Origin: Roseburia sp.
Lineage (GTDB): Bacteria; Bacillota; Clostridia; Lachnospirales; Lachnospiraceae
DNA length: 63,222 nt
Direction of reading: 5' to 3'
Assembly: GCA_023664725.1 (NCBI GenBank)
Contig: JAMPFA010000001.1
Span: forward strand, 599,191-662,412
Shown here: positions 10,879 through 63,040 of the stretch, piece by piece
How the letters are laid out: every line of letters begins with the position of its first letter
Position numbering within the stretch: the stretch's first letter is position 1
The notes under the pieces: model-generated
What the model was told of the DNA's origin: nothing
What the model saw: only the letters and a program-made list of their open reading frames with translations
Databases searched by the model: none
Made by a program: the position numbers and the translations under genes

Positions 10879-11225
10879 ATAAGAAGAATGGACTAGACGG
10901 GAATCGAACCCGTGTCCAAAAACCAATCCCCTGTCCTTCTACGAGTGTAGTCACTCCTTTGACATTTCCTCCGCCGCCCGGGGAGAGACACCCTGGCGGT
11001 TTTAGTAGCTTCATAATACGCCCACCGGCTCAAAGCTTTGCCGATGTCGTTTCCTACATAGTCGAAGCCTGGATCCTAATGTGTAGGTGCACTAGGTCAG
11101 ACTGCTGCCATTAGGCAGCGTAAGCTAAATTATCGTTAGCGTTTAATTTTAATTTTGGCATTTAACGCATCCCATACGACTCGCTTCTCCAGCTTCAAGA
11201 TCCCTGTCGAAACCTTTACTAGCCC
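10879..11225 (-). ncRNA. ssrA: tmRNA (SsrA), ~347 nt, CCA not encoded.
   Basis: 5' GGGCTAGTAAAGGTTTCGACAGGGAT... and 3' ...GGTTCGATTCCCGTCTAGTCCA form a tRNA-Ala-like acceptor stem with a G3:U70 pair and a T-arm GGTTCGATTCC. Internal tag reading frame ...GCT AAC GAT AAT TTA GCT TAC GCT GCC TAA (predicted tag ANDNLAYAA). smpB is immediately upstream. Confidence 0.9.
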
Positions 11226-42514: not shown

Positions 42515-43273
42515 TTAAATACTGTAATTAAAATGACTTCCTGTGCCGGTGGTCTGTTCATCTTTCACCTTATCCCAATTTACATTCTGAATCTTCTCTA
42601 ACAGCTCTTCCACAGAATTTGCCTTTACCATAGTGCGCTTTCCGTAAGGCTTCTCCATCCATTCTTTCTCGGCTTTCTTGGCCTGCTCTCTCGCAGTCTT
42701 GGCATCCTCTTCTTTCTTGGCTTCTTTTGTCTTCTCGATATGCTCTTTCTGCTTATCGCTCATTTTCTGAAGCTCTGCAAAATAGGAAACTGTACCGTCC
42801 TTGCCGATGGATACGCCAAGATTTACCACTTCATCTTTTTTATCTCCAAGCTGATCTTTGATCTCGTTCAGCTTGCCCGTCGACTCCTCTATAATGGAAA
42901 GATTCTTCTCTTTGTAATCGGAATCTGTAGCCATTTTTTCCAATTCCTCCGGGTCGATCAACACACTGTACTCTTTTGTCCCTCTAGAAAGATATTCCTG
43001 GGCTTCCTCGTCGGAATCGAAGCTTGCCACCATGAAGTCCATGTTGCCATATCTTCTTCGAAGCTCCGCCAACAATGCCTTGGCGTTGTCACTGAGTTTT
43101 GTGTTGTTTTTCACGGCACTGGCACTGTCTTTTTTATCGGCCTTTGCAGTTGTATTCTGTTTGTTCTTCTGATTTTTCAGCGTATTGTCGTAATTGTTTT
43201 GATACGCTCCATAAGTTCCCACTTTGTTCATTGGCATAACCTCCCTGTTATACAGCCAGCCAAAAGCCGGCAC
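42515..43273 (-). CDS. Lys/Glu-rich hypothetical protein (252 aa).
   Basis: Low-complexity charged protein; no recognised domain. Confidence 0.5.
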   Translation of the reverse strand: MPAFGWLYNREVMPMNKVGTYGAYQNNYDNTLKNQKNKQNTTAKADKKDSASAVKNNTKLSDNAKALLAELRRRYGNMDFMVASFDSDEEAQEYLSRGTKEYSVLIDPEELEKMATDSDYKEKNLSIIEESTGKLNEIKDQLGDKKDEVVNLGVSIGKDGTVSYFAELQKMSDKQKEHIEKTKEAKKEEDAKTAREQAKKAEKEWMEKPYGKRTMVKANSVEELLEKIQNVNWDKVKDEQTTGTGSHFNYSI

Positions 43274-46472: not shown

Positions 46473-46546
46473 ATGATTGTCTCTCCTTTTTGAATGGTTA
46501 GGTAAGATGTTTTGTTTTTTTAAGTATAGTGCCTGGGAATTACAAA

Positions 46547-46592
46547 ACCCTTACAAAAAGAATTACAGTTTTGTAAGGGTTGGGAGATTTCA
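46547..46592 (-). terminator. 12-bp perfect hairpin (acccttacaaaa / ttttgtaagggt); likely terminator of the DUF262 operon.
   Basis: Stem-loop followed on the minus strand by TTTGTAATT. Confidence 0.4.
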
Positions 46593-46641
46593 TTGTTGTC
46601 ATTTCCTAGTGTCTTTGCTTACATTCCACACAACATCCAGC

Positions 46642-46833
46642 TTATCCATCCTCTTGTAGAAATACAAAATCATTATGACCGTCTACAATATGGTTCCCTA
46701 ATAAGATGAGTTTCTTACAAACCAGCGTAACTGTTACCTCTTCAAACGATACAGACTCTCCTGCTACCTTTGGAGTAAGACCGCTATTGCTAATTTTATC
46801 AATTTGGCTGAATATTTCAATGTTGAGTTGCAT
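46642..46833 (-). CDS. Small hypothetical ORF (63 aa) tightly coupled to the 3' end of the DUF262 gene.
   Basis: ATG 4 nt after the upstream stop; low GC like the island; no motifs. Confidence 0.3.
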   Translation of the reverse strand: MQLNIEIFSQIDKISNSGLTPKVAGESVSFEEVTVTLVCKKLILLGNHIVDGHNDFVFLQEDG

Positions 46834-46836
46834 ATC

Positions 46837-49131
46837 CTATTTCTCCTTATCGTCTTTATTTCTAATCTCTTCTTCTGCCTTCAACACATTCTTACACATA
46901 AGTTCCAGTTGCTCTACATAATCTAAATCCTCTATGTCCTGAGTTTCCCATAACTCATCAGCTCTCGTTGCAATCTGGTCGGTAATGTCCCCCTCCTCGT
47001 TATACCATACTTGCACTAAATCATCCGGAGTAATCTTAACCCTGGTTTCCGACATAAATATTAATGAACTCAACTCGTCTGCATCCTTGCCCCTTTTTAC
47101 ATAGTAAATGTCATTGCATAGTCTCATTGAAACCTCAAGATACAAAGGACAAGCATGGTATCCTGTCAATAGCTTACCATTTAATCTGTGAGGGATATAG
47201 AACGAATCCTCTTCCGGTTTTTCTAACATAACAACAAAATTATTCGCATCTATGAACCCCTGATAATTTGCAACTGTTCTCGGATATTTTACAAAATAGT
47301 ATCTCCAGTCTTTATGCTTATCGAGTTTAGGAAGATTATTGTTTATTATGATTTCAAGGCTTTTTTCTATATCTGATGAGTCTGCATCATAATACTGCTC
47401 AAGAAACTCTGTTATTATCCTGGGATAATCACCCCGATCCGTTGTTGAAAGGATGTTATACCAATCCCTTACTCTATTTCCATAATAATATCTTCGTCCA
47501 AAATAACTATTTCCAAGGTCAATACCATAATCATTAACTGACAATATAGCTCGGAAAAGTTTTTCAAAAAACTGTTCACTAAACAACTCAGCAATATTGT
47601 CGGCCAAATCTTCAATATGCCGTTTTTTTACGAAAGGCATGACATTATGGATGAATGTTCTGAATTCGTCCATGTCTTCCAGTTTGTGTATATACTCTTC
47701 CATCTCAGGATGTTCAATAATATAATCCGCCTTATCTTTTTCGTACTTAAGGCTTTCACTATTTACCCTATCATCCTTCATTCCAGAAACAAATTCATAA
47801 ATGTCGTCTGCCTCCATGATTTCATCAAGTCCAAATGAGATATACGGGATTCCATGTCTGCAAAAACGAAAGTCCGGAGTATAACTCTCATACTTCCTCT
47901 GTCGCACCTTAATAACAAAATTACGGATGATTCTTACATAATTCTTTATATTATCATCTGTCACGCCCTTCTTTTTGAAATGAATAAGTCTCTTCATGAA
48001 CAGAAACAGGATCACCTTATTAAATACCTTCAAACCATTCTTGTTAATGGTTGCATCGATAAGATTATGTTTATCATCAAACACACGAACCTTGCCCTCG
48101 CAATACCGGTCAGAGAATACAGCATCAAAACACTCCTCTATTTCTTCCTTACTCTTCCACAAATCAAAAAGCTCATATAACTCCTCGACTTTCTCCTTGG
48201 TATCATAGAATGAAATCAATCCACGGATATCTGTTACCTTGAATGGAGAGTTTCCGTCTTTTTGCCCTGAATACTCAAGGTATATCATCTCTGTAAAATA
48301 AAGGAATAAATACATAAACTGCTCATCGATTGTATTATCAATCGGAGACCTATAGTCCCACAGCAAATCAGTCCACTTGGTATCTACAGATGCCTCAAAA
48401 TGCCCATATGGTAATCCATTCTTTTTCATATGCTGTATAAACTTAGCCTTGAAATTCTCGAAGTCAGATAGATTTTTTCCACGAGCGTTCATCTTGATAT
48501 ACAAATCATCTGTCAGAGCATAGTTCTCCATCGGCAGATAATTAAAAGTTATTATTGGACTCTCACCCATATCCCTTGTCAAGAGTGGATATAATTCTTT
48601 ATCCTCATCAAAGAACTTCTCGTGTATCGCATCAAGCATTACAAGCATATGGCGGATGGTTGGATCCTTATCCCATATGTCAAAGTATATATTTTGGTCT
48701 TTTATATGCTCTGATGGCGATATCCCGTCCTCCGGGACATAATCCATACTTATCAGCTTTTCACAGAATTCCCGTGAACTGATTCTTGTTTCATATGAAA
48801 AATTTTGAAGTACTTCTCTTGCTTCATCAATTGTTCCTTCTTTACAAGCAATATACCAATGTAGAAGATAAAGAGTTGTAAGTCTCTGCTGACCATCCAA
48901 AGGATATAGTACTCCGTTCTTAAAAGTTCCATAAACGAAATCAAAGTCCATGTTCTTTTCATTGATTAAAGCGTTATATATCGAATCAAGCAGTTCCATC
49001 CTTATAGCTGTAACATTCTCCGACATTCTTCCCTGTGCATAGTCTCTCTGCATTATAGGAATTTTTATTGTATATTGATTTATCAACATCCAAAAAGTAT
49101 ATCTGCTGTTATCTGACTGTAGATCTGGCAT
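46837..49131 (-). CDS. DUF262 (ParB/GmrS-like NTP-binding) domain protein with a long C-terminal region lacking an obvious nuclease motif.
   Basis: 764 aa; N-terminal IPIMQRDYAQG...PLDGQQRLTT...MNARGKNLSDFE (DUF262 hallmarks); low-GC coding sequence. Confidence 0.75.
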   Translation of the reverse strand: MPDLQSDNSRYTFWMLINQYTIKIPIMQRDYAQGRMSENVTAIRMELLDSIYNALINEKNMDFDFVYGTFKNGVLYPLDGQQRLTTLYLLHWYIACKEGTIDEAREVLQNFSYETRISSREFCEKLISMDYVPEDGISPSEHIKDQNIYFDIWDKDPTIRHMLVMLDAIHEKFFDEDKELYPLLTRDMGESPIITFNYLPMENYALTDDLYIKMNARGKNLSDFENFKAKFIQHMKKNGLPYGHFEASVDTKWTDLLWDYRSPIDNTIDEQFMYLFLYFTEMIYLEYSGQKDGNSPFKVTDIRGLISFYDTKEKVEELYELFDLWKSKEEIEECFDAVFSDRYCEGKVRVFDDKHNLIDATINKNGLKVFNKVILFLFMKRLIHFKKKGVTDDNIKNYVRIIRNFVIKVRQRKYESYTPDFRFCRHGIPYISFGLDEIMEADDIYEFVSGMKDDRVNSESLKYEKDKADYIIEHPEMEEYIHKLEDMDEFRTFIHNVMPFVKKRHIEDLADNIAELFSEQFFEKLFRAILSVNDYGIDLGNSYFGRRYYYGNRVRDWYNILSTTDRGDYPRIITEFLEQYYDADSSDIEKSLEIIINNNLPKLDKHKDWRYYFVKYPRTVANYQGFIDANNFVVMLEKPEEDSFYIPHRLNGKLLTGYHACPLYLEVSMRLCNDIYYVKRGKDADELSSLIFMSETRVKITPDDLVQVWYNEEGDITDQIATRADELWETQDIEDLDYVEQLELMCKNVLKAEEEIRNKDDKEK

Positions 49132-49134
49132 AGC

Positions 49135-50844
49135 TTATCCCTCCTGTAAGAACTCTTTTAGAGTATTTTTGATGGCTTGTAAGTAATCTGCTCTGTCCTT
49201 CTGACTCCAATAATGAATCTGGCTTGCATCTTCACTATAATATTTCAGAAAAACATTTCTTGTACATATAGGAATAAACTCTCCGTTCCTATCCTTTTTG
49301 ACTATGATTCCTCTCTTAACATCAAAGAAACTGTTACTGAGGGCACTATTTGTATTTCTGTCAAGTAATGCCAAGTTACTTATATTATTCAAATCCGTAC
49401 CATAATCCGATTCTATTTCTTTGCAGATTTCATCAAAAAGCTGAGTGAAACTGTCCTGTGTTATATGTTTCCTGTCGAAATTCTCAAGCATCTCAACAAT
49501 CTTCTCATATTTATTGCTGCCTTCTTGGTTCACGATAGTTTTGAAACTTGTAAGATGTTCATCTATCCATGCAAGCATAGCATCGGAAGAATTCAGAATA
49601 CCTTCTGCATTTTGAGCGTGTATATGTTCTAAAGACCACTCATTCTTATGGTATTCATCAAAACGGAATCTGGAATAAGCATTACTTTTATTCATAATTG
49701 TTATAACATTGAACAAAAGAAGCACCGTGTTGATATCATCTGCATTATCATTATAATCCAAAATACTAATATCCCCTATCCGCTCCATCTTTCTCTTGAT
49801 AATGTCCTTTATACTTTCAAGAAACTCAGACTTTGAATAGTTGCAAGCCTTATATTCGTATATCAAGTCTTCAATTGAACTAAGTTTCCTTGATGTGATA
49901 AATCCGATCAGATGGTAATAAACCTGATTGTTATACCACTCCATGACAGTCTGAAAATAATCCTTGATTTTCTTCCACACATCATCAACCAACATGGTTT
50001 TTAACATCTCATTAAACTTATGAAAAGTCGCAAATTCTCCATTGGTCTCATAGTCACTATAATTTATGGAATCAAAAATATATTCAATACGAACCTCAGG
50101 CTGTTTTGAATACTGCCGATTGATAAAATACCACACCTTATCATCCTGCAGTGTGTTTTCTATTGTATCCCACTCATTAGCAATCTCCATTTGACGTAAA
50201 TATGTAACTTTGCTATCCCCGGAATAATTTGATTCCTTGAGAAGAAGCGCCTTGATAAGCTCAGCATTTGTCAGCGGAATCTTTCCAATGTTGAGTCTGG
50301 TAAAAATACTCTCTGCATCTACATCATCAACCTCATACCAGATTACCTTGCAGAATCTTAACAAATGAGTTGTCATCTCCGTCTCGAGGGAATATTCTTC
50401 ATATTCTTCTACCATTGTGTCAAACCAGTTTTCAACAGTAGCAAAAGCTGTCTTCATAAAATAGAAATCAATATTCTTTTCCACAATCTCCCCTTTTGCC
50501 CTATCACAAATCTCATCAAGGAACTTTTCGCTGCCTTCTCTTGACGCATAATCAATGCTATAGGTTCTTCGCTGATTAAGGTATTTCAGAATAATCAGTA
50601 TCGTGGTAAGTCTCTGCTGACCATCTATGACATCATATAAGCCTCCCCTTTTTTTCACAACAATAGGTTGGAGGCAGTAAAACTCTCCTGCACTTGTATT
50701 TGCGGAATTTTTAAACTCATATAAATCATTCAGCAAGTCTTCTACTTGCTGAACATCCCATCTGTATCCCCTTTGGTATGTGGGAATAAAGAACTTCTTA
50801 TTAATCAATTTATTTACTTCCCATAGTTCAATCGTATTTGACAC
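49135..50844 (-). CDS. GmrSD-like protein: N-terminal DUF262 plus C-terminal DUF1524 HNH-like (His-Me finger) nuclease domain.
   Basis: 569 aa; FFIPTYQRGYRW...VIDGQQRLTT...RLNIGKIPLTNAE (DUF262) and EHIHAQN...ALLDRNTNSALSN (DUF1524 H-N-N); 4 nt upstream of the next DUF262 gene. Confidence 0.8.
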   Translation of the reverse strand: MSNTIELWEVNKLINKKFFIPTYQRGYRWDVQQVEDLLNDLYEFKNSANTSAGEFYCLQPIVVKKRGGLYDVIDGQQRLTTILIILKYLNQRRTYSIDYASREGSEKFLDEICDRAKGEIVEKNIDFYFMKTAFATVENWFDTMVEEYEEYSLETEMTTHLLRFCKVIWYEVDDVDAESIFTRLNIGKIPLTNAELIKALLLKESNYSGDSKVTYLRQMEIANEWDTIENTLQDDKVWYFINRQYSKQPEVRIEYIFDSINYSDYETNGEFATFHKFNEMLKTMLVDDVWKKIKDYFQTVMEWYNNQVYYHLIGFITSRKLSSIEDLIYEYKACNYSKSEFLESIKDIIKRKMERIGDISILDYNDNADDINTVLLLFNVITIMNKSNAYSRFRFDEYHKNEWSLEHIHAQNAEGILNSSDAMLAWIDEHLTSFKTIVNQEGSNKYEKIVEMLENFDRKHITQDSFTQLFDEICKEIESDYGTDLNNISNLALLDRNTNSALSNSFFDVKRGIIVKKDRNGEFIPICTRNVFLKYYSEDASQIHYWSQKDRADYLQAIKNTLKEFLQEG

Positions 50845-51125
50845 GTTTTCACACCTCCGTTCTGTTTACTCTGATTATACCTTTTTACTGCATGAAGTAC
50901 AACAAAAGTTTAACATATTCATCGTATGGAAGCTCTTCCCAATCTGTGTAATTTCTATATTCTTCTTTTCTACAAAATAAAAGCATCTGGATATTTATTC
51001 TCCAAACGCTTTTAAACAACTCACTGAAACGAGTATTTTTTTCGTGTTTGTTATCGGACAAACTTGCGTACTTTTGACATAAATTTCGTCAATCGGTCTT
51101 TTTTAGAATGTTTCCAATCTATCTA

Positions 51126-52295
51126 CTAAATCTCCTCCCCCAACATCTCAGAATAAAACCCTCTCACAAACTCCTCCACGTCTTTTTCACCTTCCGCCTC
51201 CCCTTTCACCCCCAGCTTTTGAAGCCTCCCAACATAATCCAGGAGAAACAGGTACTCATTGTCAAAAGTCTCCCCAAACAACTCACTGTATGTCTGCTCT
51301 ATGCCCAAAATTTTCTCCGCTTTCCTGTCCCCAAAATCAATGTCCATCTGAATATCACCATGGGCCTCGTAAAGCCGAAATCCTGTTACTTCCTGGATGG
51401 AGTACACCTCTTTTCTCCACAGATTGCAGATGCGAAATTCGTCCCCTGCAAATTCTGTGTAAATGTGTGTCCCACAGGACATCAGCAGAATCCCGGAAAA
51501 AAAGCAGACGATAGACAAAACCTGCAGAAACTTTGAAACCTTTCCCCTCTCCCTGTTCCAAAATAACCAGGCTCTGGCAAGCACAAAAACCAGGATAGCT
51601 GCAAAACTGTAATCCCAGTGATAATTGCGCAGCAAAATTACCGTCTCATCCACTGGCGGCTCCAACGCAGCATACAGAAGAATCCAGGAAACCACTACCG
51701 CCAGAACTATGGCACACATGAAAAATATCACCTCCACTACAGCCATAATTTTTTCCAGGATAAAAAGGACAATAGGAAGCAATCCCTCTTTTCCCATTTT
51801 TAACTGATGATAAAACAGTTTCTTTTCTATTATGACCAGAGCATAGGGACACAGGGAACAGACAATGCCAAGCCCGGTCAAAAACCCAATCTTTTCACAG
51901 TACCATACCCCATCTTCCTGCCATATTCCCGTCATGACCATGACAAAGGAAAAACTTAAAATCCAGGTGGAGGGACGCTTCATCTGATGAAAAACATGGC
52001 GCAGATATTCCTCCGCCGGAAATGCGTGAAGACGCACCACCTGGCTGATGGACATTCTTTTTCCTGTGATCTCATCCTCCATCACATTCAGATACATATC
52101 CCAACAAAACCGCCCCACCTCCAGAGCTATGATGATCAAAACCGCTGCGCCGAGAATACGATAGAGCATACTCTCCTCCCAGGCCATCACATACAGGAAG
52201 GAAACGCACACATAGCCTGCCGTTGCAAATACACTTCTCTTGTAATCCAGGAAATTGTTCTTTTTCACCCACGTCGCAAAACCCTTTACATCCAT
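51126..52295 (-). CDS. Membrane protein (~8 TM) with a C-terminal soluble domain, downstream of the frameshifted ABC ATPase.
   Basis: 389 aa; hydrophobic core; acidic C-terminal domain; 10-nt overlap with the ATPase gene end. Confidence 0.55.
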   Translation of the reverse strand: MDVKGFATWVKKNNFLDYKRSVFATAGYVCVSFLYVMAWEESMLYRILGAAVLIIIALEVGRFCWDMYLNVMEDEITGKRMSISQVVRLHAFPAEEYLRHVFHQMKRPSTWILSFSFVMVMTGIWQEDGVWYCEKIGFLTGLGIVCSLCPYALVIIEKKLFYHQLKMGKEGLLPIVLFILEKIMAVVEVIFFMCAIVLAVVVSWILLYAALEPPVDETVILLRNYHWDYSFAAILVFVLARAWLFWNRERGKVSKFLQVLSIVCFFSGILLMSCGTHIYTEFAGDEFRICNLWRKEVYSIQEVTGFRLYEAHGDIQMDIDFGDRKAEKILGIEQTYSELFGETFDNEYLFLLDYVGRLQKLGVKGEAEGEKDVEEFVRGFYSEMLGEEI

Positions 52296-53004
52296 AGCAC
52301 ACTTCCCCCCATCTGTCCCGGGAAACTCTCTCTGTCCCCAAAAAAACTCATCCTGCCCTCTTCCATCACTCCCACATAGTCGGCCACATCCTCAATGTCC
52401 TCCAAAATATGGGTGGAGAGGATCACACTAAGCTCCTCCCTGGCAATCTGGCTCTGAAGCTTATCCATCAAACTTACCCGAAACACCGGGTCAAGGTTTG
52501 CCCCAGGCTCATCCAAAAGCAGAAGCTTTGGCCTTCTCGCCATTGCAAAGGCCAGCTGGATCTGTTTTTTCTCCCCGGTGGACACTTCCCCCAGCGGTTT
52601 TTCCAACATGTTTACGTCCATTCCGAAATCCCTCAAAAGCTCATGAAAAAATTTACGTGAAAATCCTGGGTAAAAATCGCTGAAATAATCCACGTTTTCC
52701 ACAATGCTTCCCTGCCGAAAAAAAGTTCTTCCTCCCCCACGTAGGCAATCTCCTGGCGAAAATCCGCCTTTTCTATCTCTCTGGCACTGCCAAACTCTCT
52801 GCCCTTCCATGTGACCGTCCCCTCATCAGGCTTTTTCAGCCCGTAGAGCAGGCGAAACAATGTGCTTTTCCCGGAACCGTTTTTCCCAAGCAGACACATA
52901 AAATATCCCTGCTCCAGTTCAAAATTTACATTGCTGATCCTAAAGTCTGTCCGCCTCCCTCTTGCGGTGCGGACAAAATATGCAAGATTTTTTACCTGTA
53001 ACAT
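52286..53004 (-). pseudogene. ABC transporter ATP-binding protein interrupted by a -1 frameshift in a T7 tract (plus-strand A7 at 52718-52724).
   Basis: ORF 52633..53004 carries Walker A (GKNGSGKST). ORF 52286..52810 carries the signature (LSTGEKKQIQLA) and Walker B (LLLLDEP). Inserting one T restores a continuous ~239-aa protein (...EEELFFRQGSIVENVDYF...). Confidence 0.7.
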
Positions 53005-61705: not shown

Positions 61706-62131
61706 ATGCCGATGTGGAAGAAAAAAGTAATATCGGCCATTGCGTTTGTGGCGATTGCAATGGTATCAGGCGGTTTAGTTTCAATTTATGGAATGAATAA
61801 AAGCTCAGAGAACGTTAAGGACGTGGCTCAGGTAGAAATCGTGGACACGGTACAAACCAAGAATGATCGGACTGCTCAGGCAGAGATTAAGAACAGGGTT
61901 CAGGCAGATAAAGTGACGTTTTCCTGTGGGGTATCCGGTTGTACATTGACGGAAACACACCAGCACGGCTTATGTGGAATCGACGGATGTACACAGATTG
62001 GAGAGCACTGTCATGGAGAAAACAGTAGCGGATATCATCAGTCTGGTCATCATGGAAGCGGATATCATCAGTCTGGTCATCATGGAAGCGGACATCATCA
62101 GTCTGGTCATCATGGAAGCGGACATCATTAA
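61706..62131 (+). CDS. Small membrane-anchored Cys/His-rich protein with a C-terminal tandem decapeptide repeat (SGYHQSGHHG)x3.5; putative metal-binding protein.
   Basis: N-terminal TM (MWKKKVISAIAFVAIAMVSGG), then a Cys cluster (FSCGVSGC...HQHGLCGIDGC...GEHCHGE) and His-rich 30-nt tandem repeats. RBS aaagagga upstream; strong terminator downstream. Confidence 0.6.
   Translation: MPMWKKKVISAIAFVAIAMVSGGLVSIYGMNKSSENVKDVAQVEIVDTVQTKNDRTAQAEIKNRVQADKVTFSCGVSGCTLTETHQHGLCGIDGCTQIGEHCHGENSSGYHQSGHHGSGYHQSGHHGSGHHQSGHHGSGHH
62027..62128 (+). repeat. Three and a half tandem in-frame 30-nt repeats (agcggatatcatcagtctggtcatcatgga) encoding SGYHQSGHHG.
   Basis: Read directly in the sequence. Confidence 0.85.
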
Positions 62132-62143
62132 GAGCGAGTCAGT

Positions 62144-62176
62144 GCGTATAGGAACAACCTATACGCTCTTTTTTAT
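62144..62176 (+). terminator. Rho-independent terminator (gcgtatagg-aacaa-cctatacgc followed by TCTTTTTT).
   Basis: 9-bp perfect stem plus a T6 tract immediately after the stop of the His-rich gene. Confidence 0.7.
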
Positions 62177-62329
62177 AATGGAATAAAAAACGAATTCTAT
62201 ATTTTACAGCACAGGCCAAAATGCCGTAAAATATAGGATTCGCTATTTGTGGGGTGTTCCTTTTACTAATAAATCTGGTATACTTTCTTTGTTCAAAAAC
62301 ATACTGCAAGCAAAGAAGGAGAAAAAATT

Positions 62330-63040
62330 ATGGATGTTAAAAAAATTGGAAAATATATTGCAATAAAACGAAAAGAAAAAGGACTTACTCAAGAACAGCT
62401 GAGTGAAAAGCTGGGGGTAACCAATAAAACCGTCTCACGCTGGGAAAATGGAAATTATATGCCGGATTTATCTCTTTTAGAACCTCTGAGCCGTGAATTA
62501 TCTATTACTTTAAATGAACTGCTTGCAGGAGAAAATATAGAAAAAGAGGATATCTGCGAACATTGTGAAAAAAATCTGGCTGACACAGTAGAATATACTG
62601 CTAAAAAACTGAACACGGAACAAAAGAAACATTCTTTCCTATTTTTAGGAACAGGCGTTATTTTAATCATATGCGCTTTCCTGTTTTTCCCGCCGGAAAG
62701 CAGTTGGCCTTCAATCTATTCCATCCTTGGTGCAATTTTATTTTCCATTGGACTATTTCGGGCGCTAAAACTAAAAATGCTCTCCAAAAGGCTGGCAGTA
62801 TCTATCTGTATTTTTGCCTGTATATTGGCTGTTTTTCATGTTATTGACTACATAGGCGTCATTTTTTACCAAAAGCCGCCTGTTTACAGATACATAACGG
62901 AAACAAATGACAGTGCGATTGTTTACCACTCTTTGTTTTATAATGTGTACCGGCTCAATAAAGATACCCCGGAAGAATATTATGTTGTAGATAGCGAGAA
63001 AAAATATACATTAGAAACCATCTCTGAACTCCAGAACTGA
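62330..63040 (+). CDS. XRE-family HTH transcriptional regulator with a C-terminal membrane domain.
   Basis: N-terminal Cro/C1-type HTH (IKRKEKGLTQEQLSEKLGVTNKTVSRWENG), followed by TM helices. Confidence 0.8.
   Translation: MDVKKIGKYIAIKRKEKGLTQEQLSEKLGVTNKTVSRWENGNYMPDLSLLEPLSRELSITLNELLAGENIEKEDICEHCEKNLADTVEYTAKKLNTEQKKHSFLFLGTGVILIICAFLFFPPESSWPSIYSILGAILFSIGLFRALKLKMLSKRLAVSICIFACILAVFHVIDYIGVIFYQKPPVYRYITETNDSAIVYHSLFYNVYRLNKDTPEEYYVVDSEKKYTLETISELQN

Follow-up and report, generated by a model that had tools for sequence, protein, structure and literature searches.

The window analysed here is a stretch of 63,222 nucleotides (nt) from Roseburia sp. (assembly GCA_023664725.1, contig JAMPFA010000001.1, positions 599,191 to 662,412), and the subject of this report is a pair of adjacent genes, A and B, that occupies a low-GC insert at 46473..51125 of the window and probably forms an anti-phage cassette of the GrwAB type. 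Both genes are intact open reading frames (ORFs) on the minus strand, located exactly where an earlier note, made from the sequence without database searches, had placed them. Gene A (49135..50844) starts with GTG and encodes a GrwA-like protein of 569 amino acids (aa), in which a helical linker is predicted to join a DUF262 NTPase-like domain to a DUF1524 His-Me nuclease. Gene B (46837..49131) starts with ATG and encodes a GrwB-like protein of 764 aa, in which a DUF262 domain is followed by a C-terminal region of about 530 aa, with no nuclease motif. The TAA stop codon of A and the ATG of B are separated by 3 nt, with GGAGGG just 5′ of that ATG. The insert has a GC content of 0.355, versus 0.450 in the remainder of the window, and is the lowest in GC among all 4.65-kb stretches of the window (sliding mean 0.446, standard deviation 0.027). 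GC at third codon positions is 0.374 for A and B, versus 0.47-0.57 in six neighbouring genes. The earlier description of the segment as AT-rich compared with its neighbours is therefore borne out.

In protein A, the Pfam profile GmrSD_N matched residues 12-202 (50239..50811, minus strand) with an E-value of 3.3e-33. In an alignment of 32 homologues, extending down to 50% identity, residues Q24 R25 and D74-G-Q-Q-R78 (DGQQR motif at 50611-50625) are invariant, as are F181 and N185 of the FxxxN-type motif of DUF262. The match to GmrSD_C was weaker (E 8.7e-5) and, at 22.9 bits, just under the curated cutoff of 23. Since E406 H407, N490, N499 and N504 are invariant in the same alignment, A nevertheless appears, from its residues, effectively to possess the DUF1524 His-Me nuclease. 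The catalytic segment (E406-H407 ... N490 ... N499 ... N504) lies at 49333..49629 on the minus strand. H407 and N490 are 83 residues apart and N490 and N499 are 9 apart, and both the H-to-N spacing and the N-x8-N pattern after the catalytic His are kept across the whole A family. The invariant residues therefore suggest that the NTPase-type motifs and the His-Me finger of A are intact. Among the PADLOC 2023 models, HEC-06 (E 7e-21, best aligned stretch residues 9-95 only), SspE and most Orf5 models reach only the N-terminal ~100 residues of A; one Orf5 model, PDLC02693, aligns over residues 15-513 (E 7.7e-11).

In protein B, the only Pfam match was GmrSD_N, over residues 16-231 (48439..49086, minus strand; E 7.5e-20). 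Residues Q28 R29 and D79-R83 (DGQQR motif at 48883-48897) are invariant among 40 homologues, down to 34% identity, and Y211 and N215, the FxxxN-type motif of DUF262, are likewise invariant. The DUF262 hallmarks (QR and DGQQR) reported for both proteins in the earlier note are thus confirmed, as is its restriction of DUF1524 to the first gene, none of the nuclease features of A being found in B. As read from these conserved residues, both DUF262 active-site motifs and the His-Me motif of A are intact. Comparison of the two proteins by hhalign showed them to be homologous across DUF262 only (B 15-233 versus A 12-203, probability 95.7%), and no similarity was found between the C-terminal region of B and the linker and nuclease of A (probability 0.3%). 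A stretch of 23 nt encoding DGQQRLTT in both genes is identical at 22 positions between B (48875-48897) and A (50603-50625), unlike the remainder of the two DUF262 domains, which are only ~21% identical; the codons may agree by chance, or gene conversion may have left a short tract here.

The C-terminal region of B, residues 236-764 (46840..48426, minus strand), had been described as lacking any recognisable motif, and indeed it has no match in Pfam, NCBIfam, PADLOC or PDB sequences. Its residues K347, R400, R403, N404, R410, R422, Y445, E464, E485, D486, N496, G551, Y616 and D737 are invariant, and include an Arg-rich stretch (R400, R403, N404, R410, R422) and an acidic pair (E485, D486). AlphaFold2 modelling of full-length B with the 40-sequence alignment gave a mean predicted local distance difference test score (pLDDT) of 87.6, and modelling of the C-terminal 529 residues alone, along the lines suggested in the earlier note, gave a pLDDT of 91.2 and a predicted template modelling score of 0.87. 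The predicted fold begins with helical domains, continues with an alpha/beta subdomain and ends in two helices. Foldseek comparison of full-length B with the PDB returned only SspE (E 3e-4) and BrxU (E 0.2); the C-terminal region is thus predicted to fold confidently, without a solved analogue in the PDB. A profile of this region matched 1373 cluster representatives (E up to 1e-3), 783 of them at 1e-10 or below, among 1.84 billion. Because the match in complete proteins always starts at about residue 230-270 of a protein of 700-830 aa, the region exists only behind DUF262.

The association of A with B was evaluated with profiles of the A and B families of the window, against which all ORFs of the related loci were scanned. 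Of 80 species-representative genome loci, 76 have a full-length A-like gene, nuclease half and all, directly upstream of the B-like gene; in the other four, the contig ends within 600 nt of B. The same order was found in 26 predicted viral contigs of IMG/VR and in loci L001-L004, L085-L087 and L125, which include members from Vibrio parahaemolyticus and Thiocystis. In the gene calls, A and B overlap by 8-14 nt or are separated by 0-3 nt. A is obligately linked to B, and the pair is a conserved unit. It occurs in Bacillota, Bacteroidota, Actinomycetota, Alpha-, Beta- and Gammaproteobacteria, Campylobacter, Chlorobium, Treponema and others, with hosts including Lachnospiraceae, Christensenellales, Bacteroidales, Flavobacteria, Hymenobacter, Zoogloea, Acinetobacter, Bartonella and Novosphingobium; its closest relatives are from Lachnospiraceae and other Bacillota. 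More than 100 full-length relatives of B, with 35-92% identity, were present among the matches listed, and at the same loci A is better conserved than B (57-60% versus 44-45% identity). Plasmid-borne relatives bear just the annotation 'DUF262 domain-containing protein'. The E. faecalis pTEF2 locus EF_B0058/59 was considered as a relative that might have been tested, but the 18 plasmid matches for B included no Enterococcus record.

In five related loci the nuclease gene A is broken into two ORFs beside an intact B. One of these (L003, 3008-4692) is in the Fervidicella metallireducens AeB assembly GCA_000601455.1, and the other four (L007, 3131-4993; L058, 3134-5001; L064, 52-2059; L075, 3188-5010) are in metagenome bins. 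The nuclease may have been inactivated repeatedly in these loci, or the splits may be errors of assembly.

Comparison of genomic contexts showed the pair to be mobile. Its nearest relatives, in loci L085 (89% DNA identity) and L086 (80%), align with the window only over 46864..50858, an interval corresponding closely to the two ORFs, and the two ORFs alone are the transferred unit. In L085 the pair lies between addAB and maf. In L086 (294-7964) it lies beside genes for a SymE toxin, a MutH-like protein and a C5 DNA methylase, on an element that also carries DNA polymerase A and VapE-like genes, and these surroundings amount to a small group of defence genes carried by a mobile element or prophage. 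The relative pair of L004 (1-10265; A 58% and B 45% identity) directly follows pglX, pglZ and brxL of a bacteriophage exclusion (BREX) system, the position that BrxU has in the BREX system of plasmid pEFER, and is itself followed by an FtsK/SpoIIIE-like ATPase gene. In Thiocystis violacea (L125, 4214-12816), Hen1-like methyltransferase and Pnkp-like RNA-repair genes come after the pair. Since relatives with 80-89% DNA identity sit in unrelated contexts, these loci, together with the composition of the insert, support horizontal acquisition of the pair. This agrees with the proposal in the earlier note of an acquired two-gene GmrSD-like module, the A-B order having now been seen in more than 100 loci. 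No flanking direct repeats or att-like sites were found at the insert, and no tRNA or integrase gene near it; the exact products of three flanking genes (the ABC ATPase, the 389-aa protein and GntR) had no matching record, and no empty site was found.

The earlier note had raised the possibility of a new variant, which was not upheld, since DUF262 plus DUF1524 followed by DUF262 plus a long C-terminus is the architecture of GrwAB from V. cholerae (PMC12137116, Nat Microbiol 2025). In that report, GrwA consists of DUF262, a linker and DUF1524 and precedes GrwB, which consists of DUF262 and 'multiple domains of unknown function'. It also states that both proteins are required, either alone giving no protection; that defence is abolished by GrwA R81A, H431A, N521A and N530A and by GrwB R86A; that GrwAB restricts Tevenvirinae and 7-deazaguanine-containing Queuovirinae, with escapers mapping to dpdA; and that homologues occur in ~1% of genomes. 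The window pair is alike in having two adjacent, co-oriented genes with the same domains in the same order (DUF262, linker and DUF1524 in the first, DUF262 and a long C-terminal region in the second), in retaining both DGQQR arginines and the H...N-x8-N nuclease residues, and in being widespread and mobile. The counterparts of GrwA R81, H431, N521 and N530 are R78, H407, N490 and N499 of A, and GrwB R86 corresponds to R83 of B; all are invariant. The spacings in GrwA are 90 and 9 residues (H431, N521, N530) versus 83 and 9 in A, the two sets of positions therefore differing by insertions or deletions. The settings differ, in that the V. cholerae locus lies in a defence island next to Shedu whereas the window cassette lies alone between transporter operons, in a bacterium of ~45% GC. 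A pair from Thiocystis with the same residue numbers as GrwA and GrwB (R81 in A, R86 in B) matches the window-derived profiles with E-values of 4e-148 for A, 1e-135 for B and 1e-48 for the C-terminal region of B. A profile search with proteobacterial B-like proteins returned members from V. parahaemolyticus and Thiocystis and none from V. cholerae. Membership of the window pair in GrwAB is, on this comparison, well supported but not proven. The GrwAB-type arrangement being already published, the window pair is a new example and not a new system.

A second two-protein system of V. cholerae, TgvAB (PMC11411939), was also considered. TgvAB resembles the window pair in being GmrSD-like, with DUF262 in both proteins and DUF1524 in just one, and both of its proteins are needed for activity against glucosylated or arabinosylated hydroxymethylcytosine (hmC). 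In TgvAB, however, the DUF262-only gene, tgvA, comes first and precedes tgvB (DUF262 and DUF1524), the two lying between hsdS and hsdR inside a type I restriction-modification operon, whereas in the window the nuclease gene comes first and the flanks are ABC-transporter and GntR genes. Furthermore, TgvA is reported to be unlike GrwB outside DUF262, and the mutated residues H571 and N602 of TgvB are 31 apart, versus 83-92 for the corresponding spacing in the A family. Assignment to TgvAB was rejected on the basis of the reversed gene order and the absence of type I restriction-modification genes from the flanks.

Taken together, these findings predict that horizontal transfer brought in the low-GC insert as a two-gene anti-phage cassette of the GrwAB type, most likely one that cuts DNA with unusual base modifications, a reading to which we assign a probability of roughly 0.78. 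The targets of its relatives GrwAB, TgvAB, BrxU and SspE are hypermodified phage DNA (glucosyl- or arabinosyl-hmC, 7-deazaguanine). BrxU and SspE are intertwined homodimers, and in BrxU the binding and hydrolysis of nucleoside triphosphates (NTPs) at DUF262 control oligomeric state and nuclease activity. By analogy, A and B would form a heteromer in which B replaces the second protomer of a BrxU/SspE-like intertwined homodimer. Both DUF262 domains might then gate the nuclease of A, presumably the sole cutter, by NTP binding and hydrolysis upon meeting modified DNA, and the C-terminal region of B might add target recognition or regulation. Any division of A and B into sensor and effector is inferred as well, and A would not be a pure effector, because the DUF262 arginines of both GrwAB proteins are needed (PMC12137116). 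Several points weigh against this interpretation. The tie to V. cholerae GrwAB is drawn from architecture, gene order and residue pattern rather than from alignment; complex formation between A and B is likewise a deduction; the modification targeted cannot be read from sequence; and function is a prediction for the window locus and for any Bacillota member. In addition, the GmrSD_C score of A is below the curated Pfam cutoff (22.9 versus 23 bits), and the PADLOC 2023 models, with the exception of PDLC02693, match just the N-terminal ~100 residues of A.

If A and B do cooperate, B might instead serve mainly as a regulator or decoy, restraining the nuclease of A until it is triggered or absorbing phage anti-restriction proteins directed against DUF262 enzymes. 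B carries no nuclease and is the faster-evolving partner (44-45% identity, versus 57-60% for A at the same loci), and the authors of the GrwAB report suggest that a two-protein format may overcome phage anti-defences (PMC12137116). The genomes in which A is split and B intact are also what might be expected if the nuclease were costly, although most of these are metagenome bins in which assembly errors could produce the same picture. On the other hand, the NTPase motifs of B are invariant and GrwB R86A is reported to abolish defence, which argues for an active catalytic partner and not a passive inhibitor, and toxicity of GrwA alone is not mentioned in the passages of that report consulted. 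We consider a mainly regulatory or decoy role for B unlikely.

Another explanation would make A a self-sufficient single-chain enzyme of the GmrSD/BrxU type and B merely a neighbouring DUF262 protein with a role of its own. A has the complete GmrSD architecture, and the single-chain GmrSD enzymes (Eco94GmrSD, BrxU/HEC-05, HEC-06, SspE and EF_B0059), which share its layout of N-terminal DUF262, linker and DUF1524, act alone. Machnicka et al. 2015 (PMC4619093) noted no more than a tendency of DUF262 proteins to neighbour GmrSD homologues, and the relative pair located after brxL recalls BrxU in its position. A differs from these enzymes, however, in being obligately paired with B, and similarity to the HEC-05, HEC-06 and SspE models lies within its first ~100 residues. 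The linkage in more than 100 loci across phyla, with the genes overlapping or no more than 3 nt apart, the movement of the cassette as exactly two ORFs, the occurrence of the B C-terminal region only in a DUF262-fused architecture, and the failure of GrwA or GrwB alone to protect (PMC12137116) all argue against independent roles, which are quite improbable. Identification of A as BrxU/HEC-05 was rejected, the PADLOC HEC-05 match (E 3e-4) covering only ~25 residues and no BREX genes flanking the pair in the window. A phosphorothioate-based role, with the pair as an SspE-like or DndB-like component that reads the marks of the host and nicks unmarked invading DNA, is very improbable: both proteins find their best PDB match in SspE and PADLOC SspE models match A, but the SspE matches are weak and N-terminal only (E 0.034, residues 17-92), the flanking genes are ABC-transporter and GntR genes and not ssp or dnd, and no ssp or dnd genes lie beside the pair in the related loci checked. 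SspE itself was rejected for the same weak N-terminal matches and for the absence of ssp among the neighbouring genes (flanks checked, remainder of the window not scanned for ssp).

Probable expression signals of the A-B operon, read from the sequence, lie at 50845..50879 (minus strand). A perfect TATAAT at 50874-50879 is located 29 nt 5′ of the GTG of A and is followed by the putative ribosome binding site GGAGGTG; a consensus promoter scan called no full -35/-10 pair in this interval. Both of the hairpins that the earlier note had seen bracketing the segment exist. The one 3′ of B (46546..46581, minus strand) has perfect 13-nt arms and a 10-nt loop, followed by TTTTGT on the minus strand, and the other (50978..51014, minus strand), at the upstream edge of the insert, lies with its T-run ~110 nt 3′ of an upstream gene of 389 aa. 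Because a T-run follows each on the minus strand, they are read as ordinary terminators, one ending the A-B operon and the other the upstream operon, and not as a mobility signature. The 63-aa ORF at 46642..46833 (minus strand), which the earlier note had described as coupled to the stop of B, begins 3 nt past that stop codon; it probably lies outside the module and may not be a gene. It has no family match in Pfam, NCBIfam or PADLOC and no tblastn match in any related locus, and the DNA similarity of the closest relatives stops at the stop codon of B, before this ORF. It was rejected as a component of the module, as was a small ORF of 58 aa, neither being conserved in related loci.

The flanks of the pair are as previously outlined: genes for an ATP-binding cassette (ABC) ATPase and an FtsX permease lie downstream, and upstream are those for a membrane protein of 389 aa, a further ABC ATPase and a GntR regulator. 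The window looks like ordinary chromosome. The upstream ABC-transporter ATPase (52286-53004, minus strand) is split by a frameshift into overlapping ORFs of 123 aa (N-terminal half, 52633..53004) and 174 aa (C-terminal half, 52286..52810), which match separate halves of Pfam ABC_tran; the gene is a pseudogene, or else the frameshift is a sequencing error. A 252-aa DUF6033 protein (E 2.8e-56) is encoded at 42515-43273 (minus strand), between an AmmeMemoRadiSam-like gene and the FtsX permease gene, and a transfer-messenger RNA gene with the tag peptide ANDNLAYAA lies at 10889-11225 (minus strand). Further low-GC stretches are present at the window edges, at 1-1000 (0.32) and 62001-63000 (0.37).

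The analysis assigns a probable function to two genes whose plasmid relatives are named only for their DUF262 domain, and shows the GrwAB-type pair to be a compact two-ORF cassette spread over many phyla, predicted viral contigs and BREX loci. According to the literature, recognition of modified DNA by GmrSD-like enzymes is still not understood, and the C-terminal region of B, with its Arg-rich and acidic invariant patches and confidently predicted fold, is an obvious target for structural and biochemical work. The PDB offers no structural analogue of this region, which is always found fused to DUF262. As a tentative and rather less likely prospect, it could read modified DNA in a new way and determine the target range of the complex. 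In that case, the Bacillota clade may restrict modifications unlike the targets of V. cholerae GrwAB, such as those in gut phages or in phages of Firmicutes.

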